Source: a virus (Duplodnaviria; Heunggongvirae; Uroviricota; Caudoviricetes). Taken from it: 64,000 nt of DNA. The stretch lies in IMG/VR virus record IMGVR_UViG_3300025858_000011, one strand, 5' to 3'. Position numbers and translations under genes: made by a program. Of this stretch, positions 437 through 10,226 are shown in pieces (positions within the stretch are counted from its first letter, which is position 1; each line of letters begins with the position of its first letter). The notes beneath the pieces are model-generated. The model searched no databases. It saw nothing but the letters and a program-made list of their open reading frames with translations, and had not been told where the DNA came from.

Positions 437-2056
437 TCACTTTAAAGATAATTTATAAAGAATGTTTCCTTTATAAGCTACTATTACGCCCTCTTCAGCA
501 GACAGCCGAAGTCCTTGTGGAAGACCAGAATCTCTTACTTCTAAGACTTTGAGATCCTCTATCCTTCTGATTTCCAAAACATCCTCGTCATTTAAAATAA
601 CAAATACTGAGTTATTTTTCATCCCAAAATTTATATCTGTTGTGTACACATCTTGTTTTAGAATATGTACATAAGATGAAAAATCTTTGTTAAAAACAAC
701 AAGGTGACGATCATATCTATTATTCTTATACCCTATTACAATTAGTACCCTTCCGATGCGTTTCATTGAGGCGATCTTATATCCGGACAATTCTGGAAGC
801 CTTACATTATGAACGGCTCCATCTTCCGGAAATAATACATATGGATTATTGAGAATATCCTGGTATACCACTCCATCAAAAACTTTTGAACTATTAGGCA
901 TGATGTCCCAAGATGTTGCTATTGAGGCTACATCATTTTTTCCAAATGTAGTTACATCTACCTTGGTGATAGCCCTTTCCTGGACAACGTACAGAGTATT
1001 ATCGGATAATATAATACCTTTTGCTGCCAATGTCAAGTTCAAAAAGGAAACTAGTCCCTTATAATACCTAACATAGAGCTTTTTACCAGCCTCATTAATT
1101 ACATACGGATCTTGACCATTAAAAACAAGTTGCCTTCCATTATAAAACCAATGTTGCCTGATTGAGGTTGGATATTGCTCTATTATATCCATTTGAAGTT
1201 GCTGGGATATAACTTTAATAGGAGCACTTACTACGGCTGCAGGACCAGTCATGCTAACAATTCCCGGGGGAGCTATTCTTGCTCCATCCTGAAAAAGTTT
1301 TTCATACCAGGACATGTACTCTTTTGGAATAATTCCGAAGTCTCTAATATTAGGTGGTAAAGTTGCTCTTTTATCTAACATCGAAACATTCTTTTTCATT
1401 CTCTCTACCATGTCCCTGGGTCCAAAGTCAGGATGTCTTCCCTTAAAAGGATGCGCACCAGTGTATAACATGAAGCTAATTATGGCGATGCCATACCAGT
1501 CTGTTAACTCAGTACACTCCTTGGAAGAGTAATCCTGGACACCCGGGGCCAATGCAGACACCTTATAAGATTTGGTTCCGTAGCTATCTACGTCAATCCA
1601 ATAGATCTTGGAAAGATCGTCGGATATCAAGATATTGAACTCATTAGTATCTCCGATTATAGCAGAATGCCTATGTACCGCCTCCGCGCCTTTAATTGAT
1701 AAATTTACCAATCTAGTCGCAATATCTGCAGTCATATTATTATTTGTCCAAAAATCATTGGATACCGCGACTACCCATTGAAGCGTATTCTTGGCCCAAT
1801 GCATCGCATATCCAATTCTTTTGGTATTTTGAGTAACAAATGCCTTAGGAGCGATGATCATCGGCTCTACTGCCATCGGAGAAAGCTCTTTAAACTTCTG
1901 TTCGGAGATGCATCTTTTAGGATCGTGATATATTTTTATTACTAATCCCATCGGAGAGTGACCATATAATACCGCTTCTCCGCCTGTAGCCAGATAGTCT
2001 TTAGAAGCATTAAGTTCAATTTTACCGATGCCTTCAATATTTAATCTCGTACCCAT
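437..2056 (-). CDS. protein kinase-like (RIO/atypical kinase-like catalytic motif) protein
   Basis: 539 aa; HRHSAIIGDTNEFNILISDD...IYWIDVDS resembles HGDLSEYNILV / IIDVSQ catalytic and metal-binding loops of RIO-type kinases; overlaps next gene (operon). Confidence 0.45.
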   Translation of the reverse strand: MGTRLNIEGIGKIELNASKDYLATGGEAVLYGHSPMGLVIKIYHDPKRCISEQKFKELSPMAVEPMIIAPKAFVTQNTKRIGYAMHWAKNTLQWVVAVSNDFWTNNNMTADIATRLVNLSIKGAEAVHRHSAIIGDTNEFNILISDDLSKIYWIDVDSYGTKSYKVSALAPGVQDYSSKECTELTDWYGIAIISFMLYTGAHPFKGRHPDFGPRDMVERMKKNVSMLDKRATLPPNIRDFGIIPKEYMSWYEKLFQDGARIAPPGIVSMTGPAAVVSAPIKVISQQLQMDIIEQYPTSIRQHWFYNGRQLVFNGQDPYVINEAGKKLYVRYYKGLVSFLNLTLAAKGIILSDNTLYVVQERAITKVDVTTFGKNDVASIATSWDIMPNSSKVFDGVVYQDILNNPYVLFPEDGAVHNVRLPELSGYKIASMKRIGRVLIVIGYKNNRYDRHLVVFNKDFSSYVHILKQDVYTTDINFGMKNNSVFVILNDEDVLEIRRIEDLKVLEVRDSGLPQGLRLSAEEGVIVAYKGNILYKLSLK

Positions 2057-2856
2057 TGAATTGCTCCCATCGATAGATCGTCATAATGTACGATGTTTCT
2101 TTTAGCAAAATCTTTTTCCATTCTTTTCAAACGTCGCTGAACAAATCCTGGAGAGGAATTATTAAACGTAGTTATTTCCTTTATTAGGGAATTTGATGGA
2201 ATAGCAACTAACCTATTAAACTCATTATTATTATAATAAGTCTCGATGCCATCGCTAAAAATAACTACCTGGGATATTTCGCTAACGTCCGCACTTATAA
2301 TGAATACTTCATCAGCTCCATCAGTTTGAGTACGTACTAATGGAATACTGTCCCTATCAGTGTGTATATATTTGCAAGATTTGGTTTTTACTTCTGATAT
2401 ATATTCTTCCTCAGAAGATGAAGAAAGTTTATAACTTAGATAAAAAGGTTTTTCCATTGGATATTCAACGATGTATTGTTGCGAAGATCCATCGGTGTAT
2501 TTAATATATATGCATCCATCCCCAAATAGATAAACATACACCATACCTTCTATTTCAAATACAACTCCCAATGTTGCGTCTAAAGCAGAGACAGGGATAT
2601 CTAACTCGTCAATTATCGATCTAGCACTTTTGATTACAGCCCTTCCAAATCGATCAGGTTCAAAAAGAACATCATCATTAAAGTATTTAATAACGTGGGC
2701 CGCCCGATGGGCAAGAATCCGGGCACCTACGTCAGAATACAAAGCGGAGGAGCATCCGTCAGATATTATGGTGTAATTTTCTCCACTTAGCGCATAATCT
2801 TGACAAGCAAGATGCCCACTACCAATTACGTAATGGGCATCCATCGATATTGTCAA
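2041..2856 (-). CDS. PP2C-like Ser/Thr phosphatase (PPM family) candidate
   Basis: 271 aa; SDGCSS, FGDGCIY, FSDGIETY Asp/Gly-rich motifs typical of PPM metal sites; start overlaps vWA gene stop (ATGA). Confidence 0.45.
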   Translation of the reverse strand: MTISMDAHYVIGSGHLACQDYALSGENYTIISDGCSSALYSDVGARILAHRAAHVIKYFNDDVLFEPDRFGRAVIKSARSIIDELDIPVSALDATLGVVFEIEGMVYVYLFGDGCIYIKYTDGSSQQYIVEYPMEKPFYLSYKLSSSSEEEYISEVKTKSCKYIHTDRDSIPLVRTQTDGADEVFIISADVSEISQVVIFSDGIETYYNNNEFNRLVAIPSNSLIKEITTFNNSSPGFVQRRLKRMEKDFAKRNIVHYDDLSMGAIQWVRD

Positions 2857-3587
2857 ATTGTCAATTGCGCGGATTTGCCCGACCCACGCGCCGATGATTG
2901 TGATGATACTGAAGAAGACACGATGCCAGCGACTTTCGCCAATGACTCTGGGGTTGCGTCCGCAACACCAGTGTAATAACTGATCTGAGCCTCATCTTTA
3001 AAACTTATAAGAGCTGTTTTACATTCTGTATCATTAATCCCGATGAGAATGGAAAGATGTGATGCTAAGCATTCATCATGAACAGACTTTAATAGTTGTG
3101 CCCCGATGTCAAATAAAGCTCTTTTAGATGCATTTTCGACACCGTCAGTAATAGTAATTTGGATACTATTTACATCATAATCTTGACCATACAAGTATTT
3201 TGCATAATCAAAAAGAACCTGCTGCCCTTCGAGGTGTGCATCAATCAAATTCGTAAGATGATCACACTTGAATGGCTTATATTGTGCAAGGATATCGATC
3301 GATTTTACAGGAATGAATCCATGAATCTCTTCGACACCTATTTTGGAATTAAAGATAGAAACCCGCAATAAGATGTTAGCACTTGTAGCACCCTTTTGCA
3401 ATGCTAATACTGCCGTTTTGACCATCTCAAGTAAATCATTAGAGAATGGCTGTGTACTCCCGGTTATATCCACTGACACATTGGCCAGTGTGTATCCTCC
3501 CGGCTCTTTCAAATCTTTTGTGCCAGTTCCGCTATATTGATACCCCATACCGGCATCAAAACTAATGTCATTTGCTAGTCTAGGCAT
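2853..3587 (-). CDS. von Willebrand factor A (vWA) domain protein
   Basis: 244 aa; MIDAS-like VDITGST and downstream ITITDGVEN; first gene of kinase/PP2C/vWA cassette. Confidence 0.55.
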   Translation of the reverse strand: MPRLANDISFDAGMGYQYSGTGTKDLKEPGGYTLANVSVDITGSTQPFSNDLLEMVKTAVLALQKGATSANILLRVSIFNSKIGVEEIHGFIPVKSIDILAQYKPFKCDHLTNLIDAHLEGQQVLFDYAKYLYGQDYDVNSIQITITDGVENASKRALFDIGAQLLKSVHDECLASHLSILIGINDTECKTALISFKDEAQISYYTGVADATPESLAKVAGIVSSSVSSQSSARGSGKSAQLTI

Positions 3588-3596
3588 AACTTTTCC

Positions 3597-4505
3597 TTAA
3601 AAATATTTGTGAACATCTAATGTATTTGAGACTCTCATGCCCTTTGCACGAAACTCATCAATCCAGGCCGTAGTGAGGTGTTCAAAGCCAGTGACGGGAG
3701 AAGAGGCGTTTTCCAAGAAGATCAATTTCCTGCATAGATCGTCTCCCCCGTATTTTACAATGTCACGCGCCGTATTTGCGAGACAATGTGATGAAGCCTC
3801 CCCCATAAGAAGAATAAGATCACCACCAGAAATTACTTGGATAAATGGGGTATTAACCATAGTGCTGGGGTCACTAGGATCTGGCACTTCCGCCTCGATG
3901 GCTGAATAATGCTCAGTTAAAAAGTTGGACCCCTTTGTTACGTAATCAACATTTGCCTGTTGAGTCTTTTCCCAATTGATTAATGCCTTTGAAATTGCTT
4001 CATGTAGTGCTTGCCCACGAGTCCCAATAATGCAATGCTCTGGCCAAATAAGATGCGGATATTTTCCACTTGCTTCTAGGGCCTGATCATATTCTAATAC
4101 TACCTCATATAAAGTTTTGTTTCCATGAGACTTTATTCGCATGCCAGGAGCGAATACGTTCCAGGTTCCATTTTTTAAAAGGTCATATGACATTAATGTG
4201 AATGGAGCAGGATTTTCTCCATGACTATTGATATACATCTTTGGATGAGAAATATCGAACACTCGATGTGAGTCGAGAGTCACATGGGCATCCTCCAGGG
4301 CATCACCATAATCATCAATGAACTTTGCCCCAGTTACCATGTCCTCATGGGCGTGTTCAACGTAAAGTGAGCCACGCCAATTGTGGTCTACTAAGGCAGC
4401 CTCAGCATCAGCGGGTAGGCCTGCTGGTATTGGAGTCTCATTTCCTTTTTTACAAAAATCATCCTCCGGGTCGATAATGACCAGGTGGATCTTTTTCTTA
4501 GACAT
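3597..4505 (-). CDS. isochorismatase-family cysteine hydrolase (nicotinamidase-like)
   Basis: 302 aa; HLVIIDPEDDF (cf. ALLVIDMQNDF), TKGSNF Lys, GEASSHCLANT Cys give a D/K/C triad. Confidence 0.55.
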   Translation of the reverse strand: MSKKKIHLVIIDPEDDFCKKGNETPIPAGLPADAEAALVDHNWRGSLYVEHAHEDMVTGAKFIDDYGDALEDAHVTLDSHRVFDISHPKMYINSHGENPAPFTLMSYDLLKNGTWNVFAPGMRIKSHGNKTLYEVVLEYDQALEASGKYPHLIWPEHCIIGTRGQALHEAISKALINWEKTQQANVDYVTKGSNFLTEHYSAIEAEVPDPSDPSTMVNTPFIQVISGGDLILLMGEASSHCLANTARDIVKYGGDDLCRKLIFLENASSPVTGFEHLTTAWIDEFRAKGMRVSNTLDVHKYF

Positions 4506-4515
4506 ATTATGTCCT

Positions 4516-5226
4516 TTAATTTATTTGTATTACTTTATTATATAATAATGTGAATTTGTCATTTATCTCAATGTCTTGGTGAAAATGACCGAAAAACCAT
4601 TTGGTAAATTTGACTTTGGACTGAATCTCATCAAAATATTTACGTAGACCTACTTCGAAACCTGCTTTACCTAGGATTTCATCATACATAAATATCTTGC
4701 ATAGTTGCTCAAATACAGAACTTGGGCAAGTATGGGTAATGATAAAGTCTACTTCTGGATATTTCTCCAAAGTGAATAATCCATTCTCCATCTCCGCGTA
4801 TGAGGGAAGTTCTTCCTCCCACCAAGATACAAATTCGGTTCTATAGGCCTTGTCTATTGAGGCGGCTCCACCGAATGTAAAAAAAGTCTTACCTTCGATA
4901 TTATAAACATTGCCTCGATACAGGCGAAAAATGGAATCAGAAACTATACCCACAACGGAACCAAACATTTCCTGGATTGGAAGCCTATTTAAACGATAAA
5001 AGTTTTCGTGATTTCCATCGACGAAAAGTGTAGTCCACGGTTTATCGTTATACCAATCGATGAGATATTTTTCTGTCTCGGTTGGTACTGTATCCCAAAT
5101 TATTCCCATGTCCCCGGCAACAATTACGTAATCACTCTTTGTAAGAGTTTTTCCAATTGGAAAACTCTTACTGGATAAATCATTAAAATCAATTACCCCG
5201 TGTTTGTCACCTGTAACAAATATCAA
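4516..5226 (-). CDS. calcineurin-like metallophosphoesterase
   Basis: 236 aa; GDKHG, GDMG, DGNHE, GHFH metallophosphatase motifs. Confidence 0.7.
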   Translation of the reverse strand: MIFVTGDKHGVIDFNDLSSKSFPIGKTLTKSDYVIVAGDMGIIWDTVPTETEKYLIDWYNDKPWTTLFVDGNHENFYRLNRLPIQEMFGSVVGIVSDSIFRLYRGNVYNIEGKTFFTFGGAASIDKAYRTEFVSWWEEELPSYAEMENGLFTLEKYPEVDFIITHTCPSSVFEQLCKIFMYDEILGKAGFEVGLRKYFDEIQSKVKFTKWFFGHFHQDIEINDKFTLLYNKVIQIN

Positions 5227-5250
5227 TATAACTCCTTTCTATTTTTAAAA

Positions 5251-5279
5251 TAAAAAAAGGGGATATTGCCAATCCCCTT
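5251..5279 (-). terminator. intrinsic terminator (minus)
   Basis: GGGGAT-ATTGCCA-ATCCCC hairpin followed by T7 on minus strand, after structured RNA/tRNA-Leu pair. Confidence 0.6.
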
Positions 5280-5289
5280 GTTTCTGGTG

Positions 5290-5530
<241 letters not shown>

Positions 5531-6751: not shown

Positions 6752-7648
6752 TTAAAAAATAATAGTTGCCCTATTACCCCATCCAGTATAAAGATGCCCA
6801 TCAGGAAGCCAAACCAGGCTTCTGACATCAGACGTATTGTTCTCTTCCTGGATACAATAATCTGAAAATGCGATGGAGATCCCATCTTTTTCCCAGATTT
6901 TCATTCCATATGGAAGAACGGTGTGGGGCTTTTTTCCAAGTCGTACCTGGTTTTCTTCAAATTTATAAGCCATTTCCCGATACCTTTCGGAGTCCACATG
7001 GGCTTTAATCCAGGTTACCTGGGAGCACTTGCGGGCATTTCCAGGAAACGTGACATTTCTTATCAGGAATTGTCTGACTGGACTTTCTTTTACCATTTCG
7101 AAAATGGTTACAAAGTCTCCCACGATCATGTCGGTTAGATTAATACAGACCCGGACAACGATTCCCTTTTTATCAAGTGCGATGAACAACTCCTTATATT
7201 CATCAATTGTCTCAAGCGTGTCCACCGAAAAGGCAACTACGCGGACTCCCGATGTAAAGAGCTGCGGGATTCGGTCTTGATTCTTATTTAACCATATCCC
7301 ATTCGTCTGTATTTCAATCAACATCGGCCAGAATGCTTTAGCCATTTTTATAATGGCACCATAGTTCAAAAATGGTTCTCGTTTCCCGGTTAAGGTACAC
7401 ACCGCCGCACCTGCGCATCTGGCAAAGTTTTTTACAAACTTTACGTTATTGTCAATAAGACCTTGATTGGTGATGACCATGCCAGTGATTTGACTAATGC
7501 AATACGGACAGCCTTTATCACAGGTTTCTCCAGGAATTGCGATTGTCAGGTTCCAGGATTTCATATTATTCCTTTCTAAATAAAAATTAATTGGCCGTCC
7601 CATTTTATGTCGAGGGGTTCGATTGACAAGGATTTTGTTCGACACCAT
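6752..7648 (-). CDS. radical SAM enzyme (activase/QueE-like small rSAM)
   Basis: 298 aa; IPGETCDKGCPYC CxxxCxxC motif near N-terminus. Confidence 0.6.
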   Translation of the reverse strand: MVSNKILVNRTPRHKMGRPINFYLERNNMKSWNLTIAIPGETCDKGCPYCISQITGMVITNQGLIDNNVKFVKNFARCAGAAVCTLTGKREPFLNYGAIIKMAKAFWPMLIEIQTNGIWLNKNQDRIPQLFTSGVRVVAFSVDTLETIDEYKELFIALDKKGIVVRVCINLTDMIVGDFVTIFEMVKESPVRQFLIRNVTFPGNARKCSQVTWIKAHVDSERYREMAYKFEENQVRLGKKPHTVLPYGMKIWEKDGISIAFSDYCIQEENNTSDVRSLVWLPDGHLYTGWGNRATIIF

Positions 7649-7995: not shown

Positions 7996-8158
7996 TCCTG
8001 GTTAGTCATTGGTATACCAAAGTCGCGCATCATTCCGCGAAATTCATCGTAGTCTGATGTCATTGCAGTTATAAACTCCTTCATTGCTTTTCCTTTCTGT
8101 TAAGGTTAGTGCGGGTGAGAGGCATCGAACCTCCACGACCTTACGGTCACTAGATCCT

Positions 8159-8957
8159 CTTACTACAATACCTTTCAGTATCCATTTCTGTTGTAGTCTG
8201 GACTATATCATCACCTACAGTTTTATCTGTTTAGGGCTCGGCGTATAGTCTCTGAGGGGTCATTTCGGACTTCCCTGCGGATTATCAATATATCCTATAA
8301 ATTTTTACTTGATAGTCATTCCATAATTATGTATATTATGGTAGACAGATAGTATTATAGGCTTTACGAGTTTCCCGCATATAGCCAAGTACAAATTAGT
8401 TATTTCTAATTAATCGCTCAGTGTAATGAAGATAGATAAAAATGTTCTATATGAGTTATATACATTGCAGAAGCTAACTCCTTCGAAAATAGCTAGGAAA
8501 TTTAAATGCAATCATAAAACCATTCGTAGTTGGTTAAAAAAATATAATATTGCTATGCGTAGCCCTGCAGAATACAATTATTTAGCACGTCCGACACATA
8601 TTAGCCCCACTGATTTACTATTATTCAGTGACATTAGCATTGCTGGGCACATCGCCTATTTGTGTGAGGGATGGCATACTAATAAAACTACCCAATTATA
8701 TTTTTGTAATACTGATCCAATATTAATCAACTTATTCTGTAAAATGTTATTTACAATTTATAGTATTAATCATATTAGATACATCATTATTTCTCCAACT
8801 TTAGAACTATCAACAAAATTTAAAACTCTTTATCCTTCTGCAAAGATTTATATAGAACCGCTTAGAAAAAATCCTATTATACGAATCTATGCTGGAGGAA
8901 AAACATTAGCAAAAGAGTTTATAAATAATGCTTATAAAATATCCTCTTCATTAAGTT
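8159..8957 (-). other. group I self-splicing intron in tRNA-Leu(TAG), inserted after anticodon position 34
   Basis: P ATGCGGGAAACT, Q AATCCGCAGG, R TCAGAGACTATACG, S GATATAGTCCAGAC on minus reading; 5' exon ends in U, intron ends GTAAG (omega-G). Confidence 0.7.
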
Positions 8958-8959
8958 AA
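8426..8959 (+). CDS. HTH-domain protein encoded antisense inside the tRNA-Leu intron (possible homing-endonuclease-like ORF)
   Basis: 177 aa; N-terminal helix-turn-helix LTPSKIARKFKCNHKTIRSWLKKYNI; IAGHIAYLCEG weakly LAGLIDADG-like; stop codon abuts 5' splice site. Confidence 0.5.
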   Translation: MKIDKNVLYELYTLQKLTPSKIARKFKCNHKTIRSWLKKYNIAMRSPAEYNYLARPTHISPTDLLLFSDISIAGHIAYLCEGWHTNKTTQLYFCNTDPILINLFCKMLFTIYSINHIRYIIISPTLELSTKFKTLYPSAKIYIEPLRKNPIIRIYAGGKTLAKEFINNAYKISSSLS

Positions 8960-9135
8960 GTCTAGCGCGTATTCCAATTTCACCACACCCGCATAAAAAT
9001 GTAGCAACTAGTCAGTTTTAGGATTGATCAGATCCCTAATGCTCAAGAGCCCCTCGAGGTAACCGGCGCGTCGAGTTCTTCTTCTGACCCAAGCCTGTCA
9101 CAGTAGACTTTTTAGTGGGCTGCTACAATATCTTT

Positions 9136-9714
9136 TTAGGGCAACTGCCAGTACATATCGTACTTTGAGTAGCTCTCTTTATTTTTCTTTCTACAGATTT
9201 GTGTCTCCACAAATCCCAAGTCCACCAGGTCGATGAATCCATCACCGTTTACATCAGCGTAGGCATCGTATCCGGTATTTCCTCTCACTGCACCCCAGTG
9301 TACCGAAGTATGCACGATGTTAAAGTCGTCATCATTGACGACTTTGTCCCCATTTACGTCACAGAAGACGTGCGGAGGGTTTCCATAAAAACTCGCCAGG
9401 GTATCACTAACAACCAGGGTACGAGTTTTATATACAGCAACGACAAAGAACGTAAGTCTCTCTGTATATTTTTGTACCAAGATCTGTTTCTTTAAACTAG
9501 TTCTGGAGTACGGAATACCCCCGTTCATTGGAATAGGGGCTTCTGGATTTGCGTAGCTTCTTTGGTAAAGTTTAAAATACAGTGGTTTTTCCGCTGGAAC
9601 TTTCCAAGTAATTCTAAGAGTGTCATCAGCAAAAACTGGTACTCTGATTTTTTCGCGTGCCGACACACTTATTACCAATAAAAGAATAAGTGCAATAACC
9701 AATACTTTTTTCAT
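9136..9714 (-). CDS. secreted protein with dockerin-like Ca-binding repeats
   Basis: signal peptide MKKVLVIALILLLVISVSA; DVNGDKVVNDDDFNIV and DVNGDGFIDLVDLGFV dockerin type I-like repeat pair. Confidence 0.55.
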   Translation of the reverse strand: MKKVLVIALILLLVISVSAREKIRVPVFADDTLRITWKVPAEKPLYFKLYQRSYANPEAPIPMNGGIPYSRTSLKKQILVQKYTERLTFFVVAVYKTRTLVVSDTLASFYGNPPHVFCDVNGDKVVNDDDFNIVHTSVHWGAVRGNTGYDAYADVNGDGFIDLVDLGFVETQICRKKNKESYSKYDMYWQLP

Positions 9715-9941: not shown

Positions 9942-9959
9942 AAATACCTCCAAAATTGG

Positions 9960-10226
9960 AGCCTGGGAGAGGACTTGAACCCCCAACCCGCTGATTACCT
10001 TACCACTATAGTTTTCACTACCGATTACTCGTTTGTGGTCTGGACTATGTCTTCACCATCTCAGGTGCAACACGTATAGTCTCTACGGATCCCCTTAGGT
10101 TTCCTCGGCGTTGCCATACATAATATGTAAGGGTTCACCGATACAGTGTTGTACATTCTATAAATTTTTTTCTCTATAGAAGCCCATTTTTTAGGTCAGC
10201 AGCTCTACCAATTGAGCTACCCAGGC
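9960..10226 (-). tRNA. tRNA-Thr(TGT) candidate interrupted by 194-nt group I intron (exons 10193..10226 and 9960..9998)
   Basis: 5' exon GCCTGGG-TA-GCTCAATTGGTAGAGC-T-GCTGA-CCT; 3' exon GTAA-TCAGC-...GGTTCAAGTCC...CCCAGGC-T; unusual C33 makes the anticodon call tentative. Confidence 0.6.
9999..10192 (-). other. group I intron (Azoarcus-like small IC-type core) in tRNA
   Basis: TATGGCAACGCCGAG, GAAACCTAAG, CCGTAGAGACTATACG, CATAGTCCAG elements; ends GTAAG like the tRNA-Leu intron. Confidence 0.65.

Follow-up and report, generated by a model that had tools for sequence, protein, structure and literature searches.

Homing endonuclease genes that lie antisense to the group I intron carrying them are documented only for His-Cys box enzymes of myxomycete nuclear ribosomal DNA (rDNA), namely I-DirII in Dir.S956-2 and I-DsqI in Dsq.L2066 (PMC9548176, PMC3679873). 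Here we describe an antisense open reading frame (ORF) nested in the group I intron of a tRNA-Leu(UAG) gene, on a 64,000-nucleotide stretch of viral DNA (Caudoviricetes; IMG/VR record IMGVR_UViG_3300025858_000011), hereafter the window. Its product, to which we attribute a putative nuclease activity, is probably a homing endonuclease from an unclassified and very divergent LAGLIDADG-fold family specialised on the tRNA-Leu(UAG) genes of large phages. As in I-DirII and I-DsqI, the gene occupies the strand opposite to both the ribozyme and the host gene. In addition, the myxomycete genes are thought to use an internal promoter of their own and to yield an mRNA complementary to the precursor RNA, as we propose for the phage gene. 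In other respects the two systems are far apart. The myxomycete one is eukaryotic and nuclear, involves RNA polymerase II, spliceosomal introns and poly(A), has an rRNA host and carries its ORF in P9.2 (Dsq.L2066), whereas the window shows a phage gene with a tRNA host, a LAGLIDADG-like fold, a bacterial-type promoter candidate and an ORF that fills the P1 loop.

Endonucleases that adjoin their target without residing in an intron are also known. SegB of phage T4 is free-standing in a tRNA cluster (PMC2330249), and F-CphI, found at psbA, has been linked to a “collaborative homing” or “endonuclease-gene invasion” route to mobile introns (PMC3984707). The present family resembles both in that its genes can lie beside, not in, a conserved target, with free-standing copies in the phage tRNA region. 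SegB is a GIY-YIG enzyme, unlike the family. F-CphI is presumably not a LAGLIDADG enzyme. For neither have the free-standing and the intronic state been seen in one family across many genomes, and their genes are not systematically antisense; the family described here shows both states at a single gene, as expected under the invasion model.

In a 2026 survey of tRNA introns from bacteria (PMC13011429), tRNA-Leu(UAG), antisense ORFs and unclassified families are all absent from the reported cases. The introns it describes are, like ours, group I introns of the tRNA anticodon loop that exceed 500 nucleotides (nt) because of an endonuclease ORF; the survey drew on genomes of bacteria, and detection through Pfam would not pick up the family. 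No antisense case appears in that survey, in a review of bacterial group I introns (PMC3984707) or in a 2025 intron and endonuclease database (PMC11835236), and full-text literature searches returned no report of an antisense endonuclease gene in a group I intron of phages or bacteria. As far as the searched literature shows, the window therefore holds the first such gene. Antisense endonuclease genes in myxomycete rDNA and free-standing endonucleases adjoining their target are already known; the unclassified LAGLIDADG-fold family, its fixed antisense orientation, its single target gene and its presence both outside and inside the intron are new here.

The antisense gene and its product

The ORF was taken from a mechanically made list and runs from ATG to TAA over 177 codons. 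As a preliminary description of the locus had stated, it lies on the strand opposite to an intron of about 800 nt (799 nt by our delimitation) that encloses it. The same description placed the stop codon against the 5′ splice site. The stop is indeed located there, with the correction that its TAA (8957-8959) is the complement of U33, U34 and the first intron base, and overlaps the exon by two bases. This overlap arises because UU/A happens to be in frame. A designed overlap of stop and anticodon was rejected: in L014 the first intron base is G and the ORF runs through the whole 5′ exon.

At the base composition of the ORF itself (guanine-plus-cytosine (GC) content 0.288, ten points below the 0.392 of the window), a run of 177 codons without a stop has a probability of about 4e-7; each of the remaining five frames across this stretch is interrupted by 10-25 stops. 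A search of 5.8 billion proteins returned one identical copy and four full-length relatives with 47-51% identity; overall, full-length homologues are 44-54% identical to the ORF product. The identical copy sits on contigs of up to 204 kb, labelled by one source as a metagenome-assembled genome of Bacteroidales. In the closest pair of family members (L007 and L011, 83% identical), the ratio of non-synonymous to synonymous substitution rates (dN/dS) is 0.22. Over all pairs, differences at the first, second and third codon positions number 5133, 3680 and 7270, respectively. AlphaFold models the protein with a mean predicted local distance difference test score (pLDDT) of 89 for the full chain and 97.4 for the C-terminal domain alone. 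The low chance probability, the full-length relatives, the dN/dS value and the foldability together show that the ORF is a genuine gene, and one under purifying selection.

The protein is made of two modules. The N-terminal helix-turn-helix (HTH), already noticed in the preliminary description, matches Pfam HTH_23 (residues 14-41, E 4e-5) and is predicted by AlphaFold as three helices; its matches in PHROGs are the HTH segments of two families that carry an HNH endonuclease annotation. An exhaustive HMMER search recovered the module from thousands of other proteins as well, arrayed in up to 14 copies. In these, the unit of about 45 residues is repeated 4-14 times in tandem within chains of 200-900 residues (P0006, P0008, P0012 and about 3,700 others), for which Pfam reports HTH families only.

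In the model of the C-terminal domain, the core has the alpha-beta-beta-alpha-beta-beta-alpha topology of the LAGLIDADG fold. In structure comparison with this domain model, LAGLIDADG endonucleases came first and almost exclusively (16 LAGLIDADG matches), and the full-length model gave the same top match. The weak LAGLIDADG-like stretch flagged from the sequence corresponds to helix 1 of this domain (residues 69-81), the best-conserved part of the family. Residues H75, Y78, E81, G82, N95, Y112, G158 and N168 are invariant in 20 family sequences. Helix 1 ends with E81-G82, that is, with an acidic residue and a glycine as in the LAGLIDADG motif, and N95 ends the strand preceding helix 2. In terms of the I-CreI structure, E81-G82 would presumably occupy the position of its catalytic Asp-Gly and N95 that of Gln47. 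E81 is a candidate metal-binding residue. Among other folds considered, the predicted topology does not fit the EDxHD/Vsr-like and PD-(D/E)xK folds, and W83 and H84 are not invariant. With the full-length model, OmpA-like, Rid and DegV folds competed with LAGLIDADG; with the domain model, they fell behind the 16 LAGLIDADG matches.

Several observations weigh against a LAGLIDADG enzyme. Residues 60-177 match nothing in Pfam, NCBIfam or PHROGs, even at E 10. Pfam searches over 20 family members return generic HTH models only, PDB sequences searched with two family profiles give HTH or noise, and Foldseek against the PDB finds nothing below E 0.1, its tubulin/FtsZ matches being spurious. By sequence, neither a curated LAGLIDADG model nor a solved member is recovered. 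Outside its acidic residue and glycine, the motif (H75, Y78, C80) is non-canonical, and His, Ile and Tyr stand where small residues otherwise allow the two LAGLIDADG helices to pack. Of the first beta hairpin, which reads DNA in known enzymes, only one strand is left, and helix 2 is followed by an additional, inserted strand-helix unit. Since no sequence library recognises the domain, membership is assigned at the level of the fold rather than of a sequence family; on its predicted structure, the protein is therefore placed in the LAGLIDADG fold, outside every named sequence family. For the same reason, the HHpred/Pfam check advised in the preliminary description would probably have failed on its own: Pfam returned the HTH and left the nuclease-like domain unseen, and NCBIfam, PHROGs and PDB sequences are equally blind to it.

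Compared with the single-domain homodimers I-CreI, I-CeuI, I-MsoI and I-CvuI, the family has no detectable sequence similarity. It differs from I-CreI-type enzymes by the truncated first hairpin, the inserted strand-helix unit, the added N-terminal HTH, the motif HxxYLCEG and a gene antisense to the intron. Each chain contains one LAGLIDADG-like domain, so that a homodimer is expected.

Linkage of the family to tRNA-Leu(UAG)

A profile of the C-terminal domain gathered 32 clusters of 134-203 residues, all with E <= 3e-29 and none with a recorded Pfam domain. Their sources are exclusively metagenomic or viral contigs, several of 100-790 kb, and relatives occur on IMG/VR viral contigs of 106-275 kb. 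A 5-sequence family alignment found no relative in 185,579 species genomes. In 50,697 deposited phage records, tblastn gave no family match, and blastn against deposited phages retrieved only a short piece of the ribozyme core in Lactococcus phages.

Sixteen distinct loci were assembled from the window, a look-up of the exact protein, pattern scans of viral and metagenome collections and a look-up of distant members (Table 1). In all 15 loci with a typed tRNA, the ORF has a tRNA-Leu(UAG) gene on the opposite strand, no more than about 130 nt away; the sixteenth, L002, is cut by the contig end. ARAGORN miscalled the tRNA of L012, which is UAG when read by eye. The family is strictly linked to tRNA-Leu(UAG), and the antisense orientation characterises the family as a whole rather than the intron. 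The earlier suggestion that the nuclease might be free-standing finds support in the members located beside intronless tRNA-Leu(UAG) genes. Some of these abut or overlap the tRNA, and others are separated from it by 10 nt (L140=L141) or 125 nt (L136-138).

In L007=L008=L010 and L011, the ORF crosses the 3′ half of the tRNA in antisense, and its stop is again the TAA of the anticodon loop. The positions are 2992-3561 (+) for the L007 ORF and 3518-3594 (-) for its tRNA, and 1549-2118 (+) and 2075-2152 (-) for those of L011. Both proteins end in …EMVGGEGVEPSDTRF, and the TAA is the complement of U33-U34-A35. The tRNA(UAG) of these loci combines a Leu-like D arm with a short variable loop and looks like a class II 5′ half continued by a class I 3′ half. 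Elsewhere, tandem family paralogues with one domain each stand beside tRNA-Leu(UAG), at 1924-3058 (+) in L136, whose contig measures 790 kb, at 2501-3617 (+) in L139 and at 2501-3621 (+) in L142. Such pairs may be heterodimers, a step before the fusion seen in double-motif LAGLIDADG proteins.

The uninterrupted anticodon-arm site GCTAGAYTTAGGWTCTAG is found in at least 120 viral contigs, with no family member in the fetched flanks and in tRNAs up to 86% identical to the spliced tRNA of the window. The same site is split by intron and ORF in the eight complete intron loci and in the truncated one, so that it is polymorphic for the presence or absence of the element. The tRNA exons of the intron loci have diverged, which places the element in different phage lineages. 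A blastn search of the window flanks against all fetched loci revealed no closely related genome with an empty site. A gapped pattern found no ORF-less tRNA-Leu(UAG) intron in viral contigs, its 11 matches all being chance hits without a tRNA.

At the DNA level, the anticodon arm is an inverted repeat centred on the insertion point (CTAGA CTT/AGGA TCTAG, the slash marking this point). Position 37 is G in all eight intron-bearing tRNAs and A in six of the seven tRNAs beside free-standing members. Free-standing copies would be expected beside a resistant site, and the position-37 pattern, read across loci that are not independent, fits this expectation. On the other hand, the free-standing member L011, the exception at position 37, adjoins a tRNA whose anticodon arm, CTAGATTTAGGATCTGG, resembles an uncut homing site. 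This is awkward for the proposed targeting if the anticodon arm is the whole target.

Two of the contigs carry further tRNA introns with sense-strand ORFs. In L013, a tRNA-Leu(UAA) intron with an Rfam group I match (4587-5424, -) contains an ORF (4699-5334, -) in which an HNH motif is recognised by eye. In L009, a tRNA intron called by ARAGORN only, with no Rfam match listed (4494-5252, -), contains an ORF (4542-5057, -) that looks PD-(D/E)xK-like by eye. Both ORFs sit in an intron niche equivalent to that of the antisense ORF, and introns of tRNA genes that carry endonucleases may be frequent among these large phages. Taken together, the linkage, the sporadic spread, the low GC content and the niche read as the signature of a putative site-specific selfish nuclease.

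Intron RNA, expression signals and genomic setting

With its intron option, ARAGORN identifies a tRNA-Leu(UAG) gene with a long variable arm at 8992..8109 (-), split between anticodon-loop nucleotides 34 and 35; a standard tRNA scan calls nothing at this position. The host is a tRNA-Leu, as first described, and its anticodon is UAG, not the UAA of the classical cyanobacterial case. Once spliced, the gene contains …CGCGCTAGACTTAGGATCTAGTG…. The intron matches Rfam Intron_gpI (RF00028) over the full model (1-253) with 72 bits (E 1.4e-17; gathering score 50), placing its P3-P9 core above the Rfam threshold; the introns of relatives score 48-71 bits. With respect to the Rfam consensus, the P5 region is longer by about 70 nt, an extension absent from the second, ORF-less intron of the window.

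The internal guide sequence has the consensus 5′-CCUGAR-3′ across loci. In the window, GAG of the guide (CACUGAG) pairs with C-U-U of the 5′ exon to form P1, and the preceding bases, CCU in most relatives, pair with AGG of the 3′ exon to form P10. The R of the guide covaries with exon position -3 in nine of nine loci (a C-G pair in five, a U-A pair in four). In addition, U is the last base of the 5′ exon and G that of the intron in all eight complete intron loci, the 3′ end of the L012 intron having been corrected by eye; L002 has U at -1, its intron end lying beyond the contig. The intron has, then, the U-1, omega-G, P1 and P10 elements of a group I intron. Splicing at another position, which would yield anticodon UAA and A at -1, is rejected on account of the U-1/omega-G rule, the ARAGORN call and the P1/P10 pairing. 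On the strength of the intact core, the U-1/omega-G rule and the P1 covariation, we infer that the intron is splicing-competent.

The ORF fills the stretch from the 5′ splice site to the guide, its ATG being 2 nt from the latter. Intron bases ~5-20 and the complement of the start-codon region form a predicted P1-extension duplex in nine of nine intron loci (z -0.9 to -4.9 relative to shuffles); the window duplex has 9 base pairs (bp), -13.3 kcal/mol and z -3.0. Its strands close a loop of about 510 nt that consists nearly entirely of antisense coding sequence. The presence of this helix in all nine loci implies that the ORF is looped out of P1.

The idea that the gene needs its own promoter is supported by a sigma-70-like site at a conserved distance from the start codon. 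The best such site in the 260 nt upstream of ATG lies at -107 to -118 in six of eight intron loci, and that of L012 reads TTGACA-17-TATACT (11/12 matches). Some points count against it. By itself, the candidate of the window does not exceed chance expectation. Moreover, the loci are homologous, and the TTG is subject to a second constraint from the RNA (CAA). For these reasons, an antisense promoter inside the complement of the ribozyme is put forward as a reasonable inference. In several relatives, the complement of the guide (CCUGAG, giving CTCAGG) stands 3-12 nt upstream of the antisense ATG, where it could double as a ribosome-binding site. We do not claim CTCAGG as a Shine-Dalgarno sequence; the window reads CTCAGTG, without AGG.

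Table 1. Features of the tRNA-Leu(UAG) locus in the window, and classes of family loci.
Feature	Position	Strand	Basis or remark
5′ exon of tRNA-Leu(UAG): acceptor, D arm, 5′ half of anticodon arm, last base U34	8958..8992	-	ARAGORN intron option
Group I intron, 799 nt, at 34/35; U at -1, G as last intron base	8159..8957	-	ARAGORN, Rfam
3′ exon of tRNA-Leu(UAG): A35 G36 G37 onward, long variable arm, T arm, acceptor	8109..8158	-	ARAGORN
Ribozyme core P2 to P9, with ~70 nt insertion in P5 region	8180..8435	-	Full-length Rfam Intron_gpI match
Internal guide sequence 5′-CACUGAG-3′	8417..8423	-	Pairing and covariation
Predicted P1-extension helix, 5′ strand UAAUGAAGA, complement of the last ORF codons	8945..8953	-	Duplex prediction
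Predicted P1-extension helix, 3′ strand UCUUCAUUA, complement of the ORF start-codon region	8424..8432	-	Duplex prediction
Antisense ORF, 177 aa: HTH and single LAGLIDADG-fold domain; putative homing endonuclease	8426..8959	+	
N-terminal three-helix HTH module, residues 5-39	8438..8542	+	Pfam, AlphaFold
Predicted LAGLIDADG-fold domain, residues 60-177	8603..8956	+	
Motif H75-I-A-Y78-L-C-E81-G82 at C-terminal end of helix 1, putative counterpart of the LAGLIDADG motif	8648..8671	+	Invariance in 20 sequences
Sigma-70-like promoter candidate TTGATA-17-TATATT, 89 nt upstream of ATG	8309..8337	+	In complement of P5-region extension
Intron-borne, complete: window, L001, L003=L006, L005, L009, L012, L013, L014			Same 34/35 site and orientation as window
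Intron-borne, contig-truncated: L002			
Free-standing, at 3′ end of intronless tRNA (abutting, overlapping or with gap): L007=L008=L010, L011, L140=L141, L136-138			Four loci
Free-standing, on 5′ side of intronless tRNA: L004, L139, L142			Three loci

In content, the window resembles a section of a large phage genome. It carries 21 uninterrupted tRNA genes according to ARAGORN, every one on the minus strand, and encodes a primase-helicase-like protein and a LigD-type ligase; most of its proteins have no family match. A second split tRNA gene, tRNA-Thr(UGU), lies at 9957-10226 (-) and is likewise missed by the standard scan. Its intron (9999-10192) is a 194-nt, ORF-less group I intron, also inserted after nucleotide 34, which scores only 36 bits in Rfam, under the gathering score. 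The spliced anticodon loop would be CC-UGU-AA, with C at position 33 where the near-universal base is U. Standard tRNA finders thus overlook split tRNA genes of large phages, two of them in the window. Of the genes flanking the split tRNA-Leu gene, one (9136-9714, -) specifies a small protein in which a dockerin type I domain is recognised (E 9e-8), a feature unusual in a phage that may point to a cellulosome-bearing host; the other (6752-7648, -) is radical SAM-like, just below the Pfam cut-off (E 1e-5). Among the relatives' contigs, L014 has a tRNA with anticodon CUA at 4103-4177 (-), an amber suppressor that ARAGORN labels Pyl, and L005 has a tmRNA-like (transfer-messenger RNA) element at 929-1165 (-), just below Rfam thresholds (permuted tmRNA, 45 bits against 47). 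Both hint at stop-codon reassignment or rescue functions in these phages.

Proposed homing cycle, alternative functions and implications

Combining these observations, we propose the following course of events. Transcription of the minus strand would give the pre-tRNA, from which the group I ribozyme would remove the intron through guide pairing with both exons. The plus strand would be transcribed from the candidate promoter inside the complement of the P5-region extension. The protein, with one HTH and one LAGLIDADG-type domain per chain, would act as a homodimer, or possibly as a heterodimer where tandem paralogues exist. In mixed infections, its targets would be intron-less tRNA-Leu(UAG) genes, cleaved in the anticodon arm at the inverted repeat of the insertion site; the break would then be repaired with the intron-bearing genome as template, and the cut allele would acquire both intron and gene. 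By splitting the site, the intron would protect the genome in which it resides. Sites next to free-standing members, mostly A37 and not G37, are perhaps resistant. Finally, the antisense layout would uncouple the gene from a strongly transcribed tRNA cluster, its expression probably being kept low or damped by tRNA transcription.

A wider proposal, which we offer tentatively and would not expect to hold in all its parts, unites three elements. The family may form a natural series (free-standing on either side of the tRNA, overlapping its 3′ half, within the P1 loop) for the route in which an endonuclease invades an intron. The antisense layout may be functional, with a promoter in a ribozyme arm and a 5′ untranslated region and coding region complementary to P1-P4, allowing mutual transcription interference and inhibition of splicing by the mRNA. 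Finally, the HTH plus half-LAGLIDADG dimer may read palindromic anticodon-arm DNA.

Alternatively, the protein could be a catalytically dead, domesticated LAGLIDADG and HTH regulator of the tRNA-Leu(UAG) gene or of the tRNA cluster. The precedent would be WhiA, a bacterial transcription factor with two degenerate LAGLIDADG domains and a C-terminal HTH. We consider this unlikely. The family has a single domain, an N-terminal HTH and an invariant Glu followed by Gly at the end of helix 1, an acidic residue that WhiA has presumably lost. Its spread is sporadic and phage-borne and its GC content is low, whereas WhiA is a conserved chromosomal gene. Moreover, the ORF shares its intron niche, typical of a selfish nuclease, with the HNH- and PD-(D/E)xK-looking ORFs of the same contigs, and the at least 120 phage contigs with the same tRNA arm do without a family member. 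A regulator of the intron, as raised in the preliminary description, is not favoured either, because relatives also adjoin intron-less tRNAs.

A role as intron maturase, in which a LAGLIDADG-type protein with or without residual nuclease activity would aid RNA folding across the ~510-nt P1 loop, seems more improbable still. LAGLIDADG maturases are established in fungal mitochondrial group I introns, and help in folding is plausible for a P1 of only 3-4 bp across a very long loop. However, the P1-extension helix already closes this loop in nine of nine intron loci, and seven distinct loci lie beside intron-less tRNAs with no intron within reach, so that splicing help cannot be the common function of the family. 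Lastly, the notion that the frame is no gene at all, being AT-bias noise or conserved through the intron RNA of the opposite strand, could appeal to the AT-rich region and to C-terminal two thirds nameless in family libraries, but is already refuted by the fact that AT richness makes stops commoner, not rarer, by the frame probability, dN/dS and third-position excess given above, by about 50% protein identity over the full length with saturated synonymous sites, by the confidently modelled domain and by relatives outside any intron.

Homing endonucleases and their introns are textbook selfish DNA and the source of the meganucleases used in genome engineering. A homing endonuclease of the kind favoured here would add a LAGLIDADG-fold family that every sequence library has left unseen, so that surveys relying on Pfam would undercount endonuclease-bearing introns. 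Its small two-module scaffold (HTH and a domain of about 115 residues), with a naturally palindromic site, could serve as an engineering chassis. With the gene in antisense, one must also ask how two transcripts converging on a ribozyme can be accommodated. Overall, one family with one target, tRNA-Leu(UAG), and with both free-standing and intron-borne copies would make the origin of mobile introns, a matter of long debate, directly comparable across genomes.

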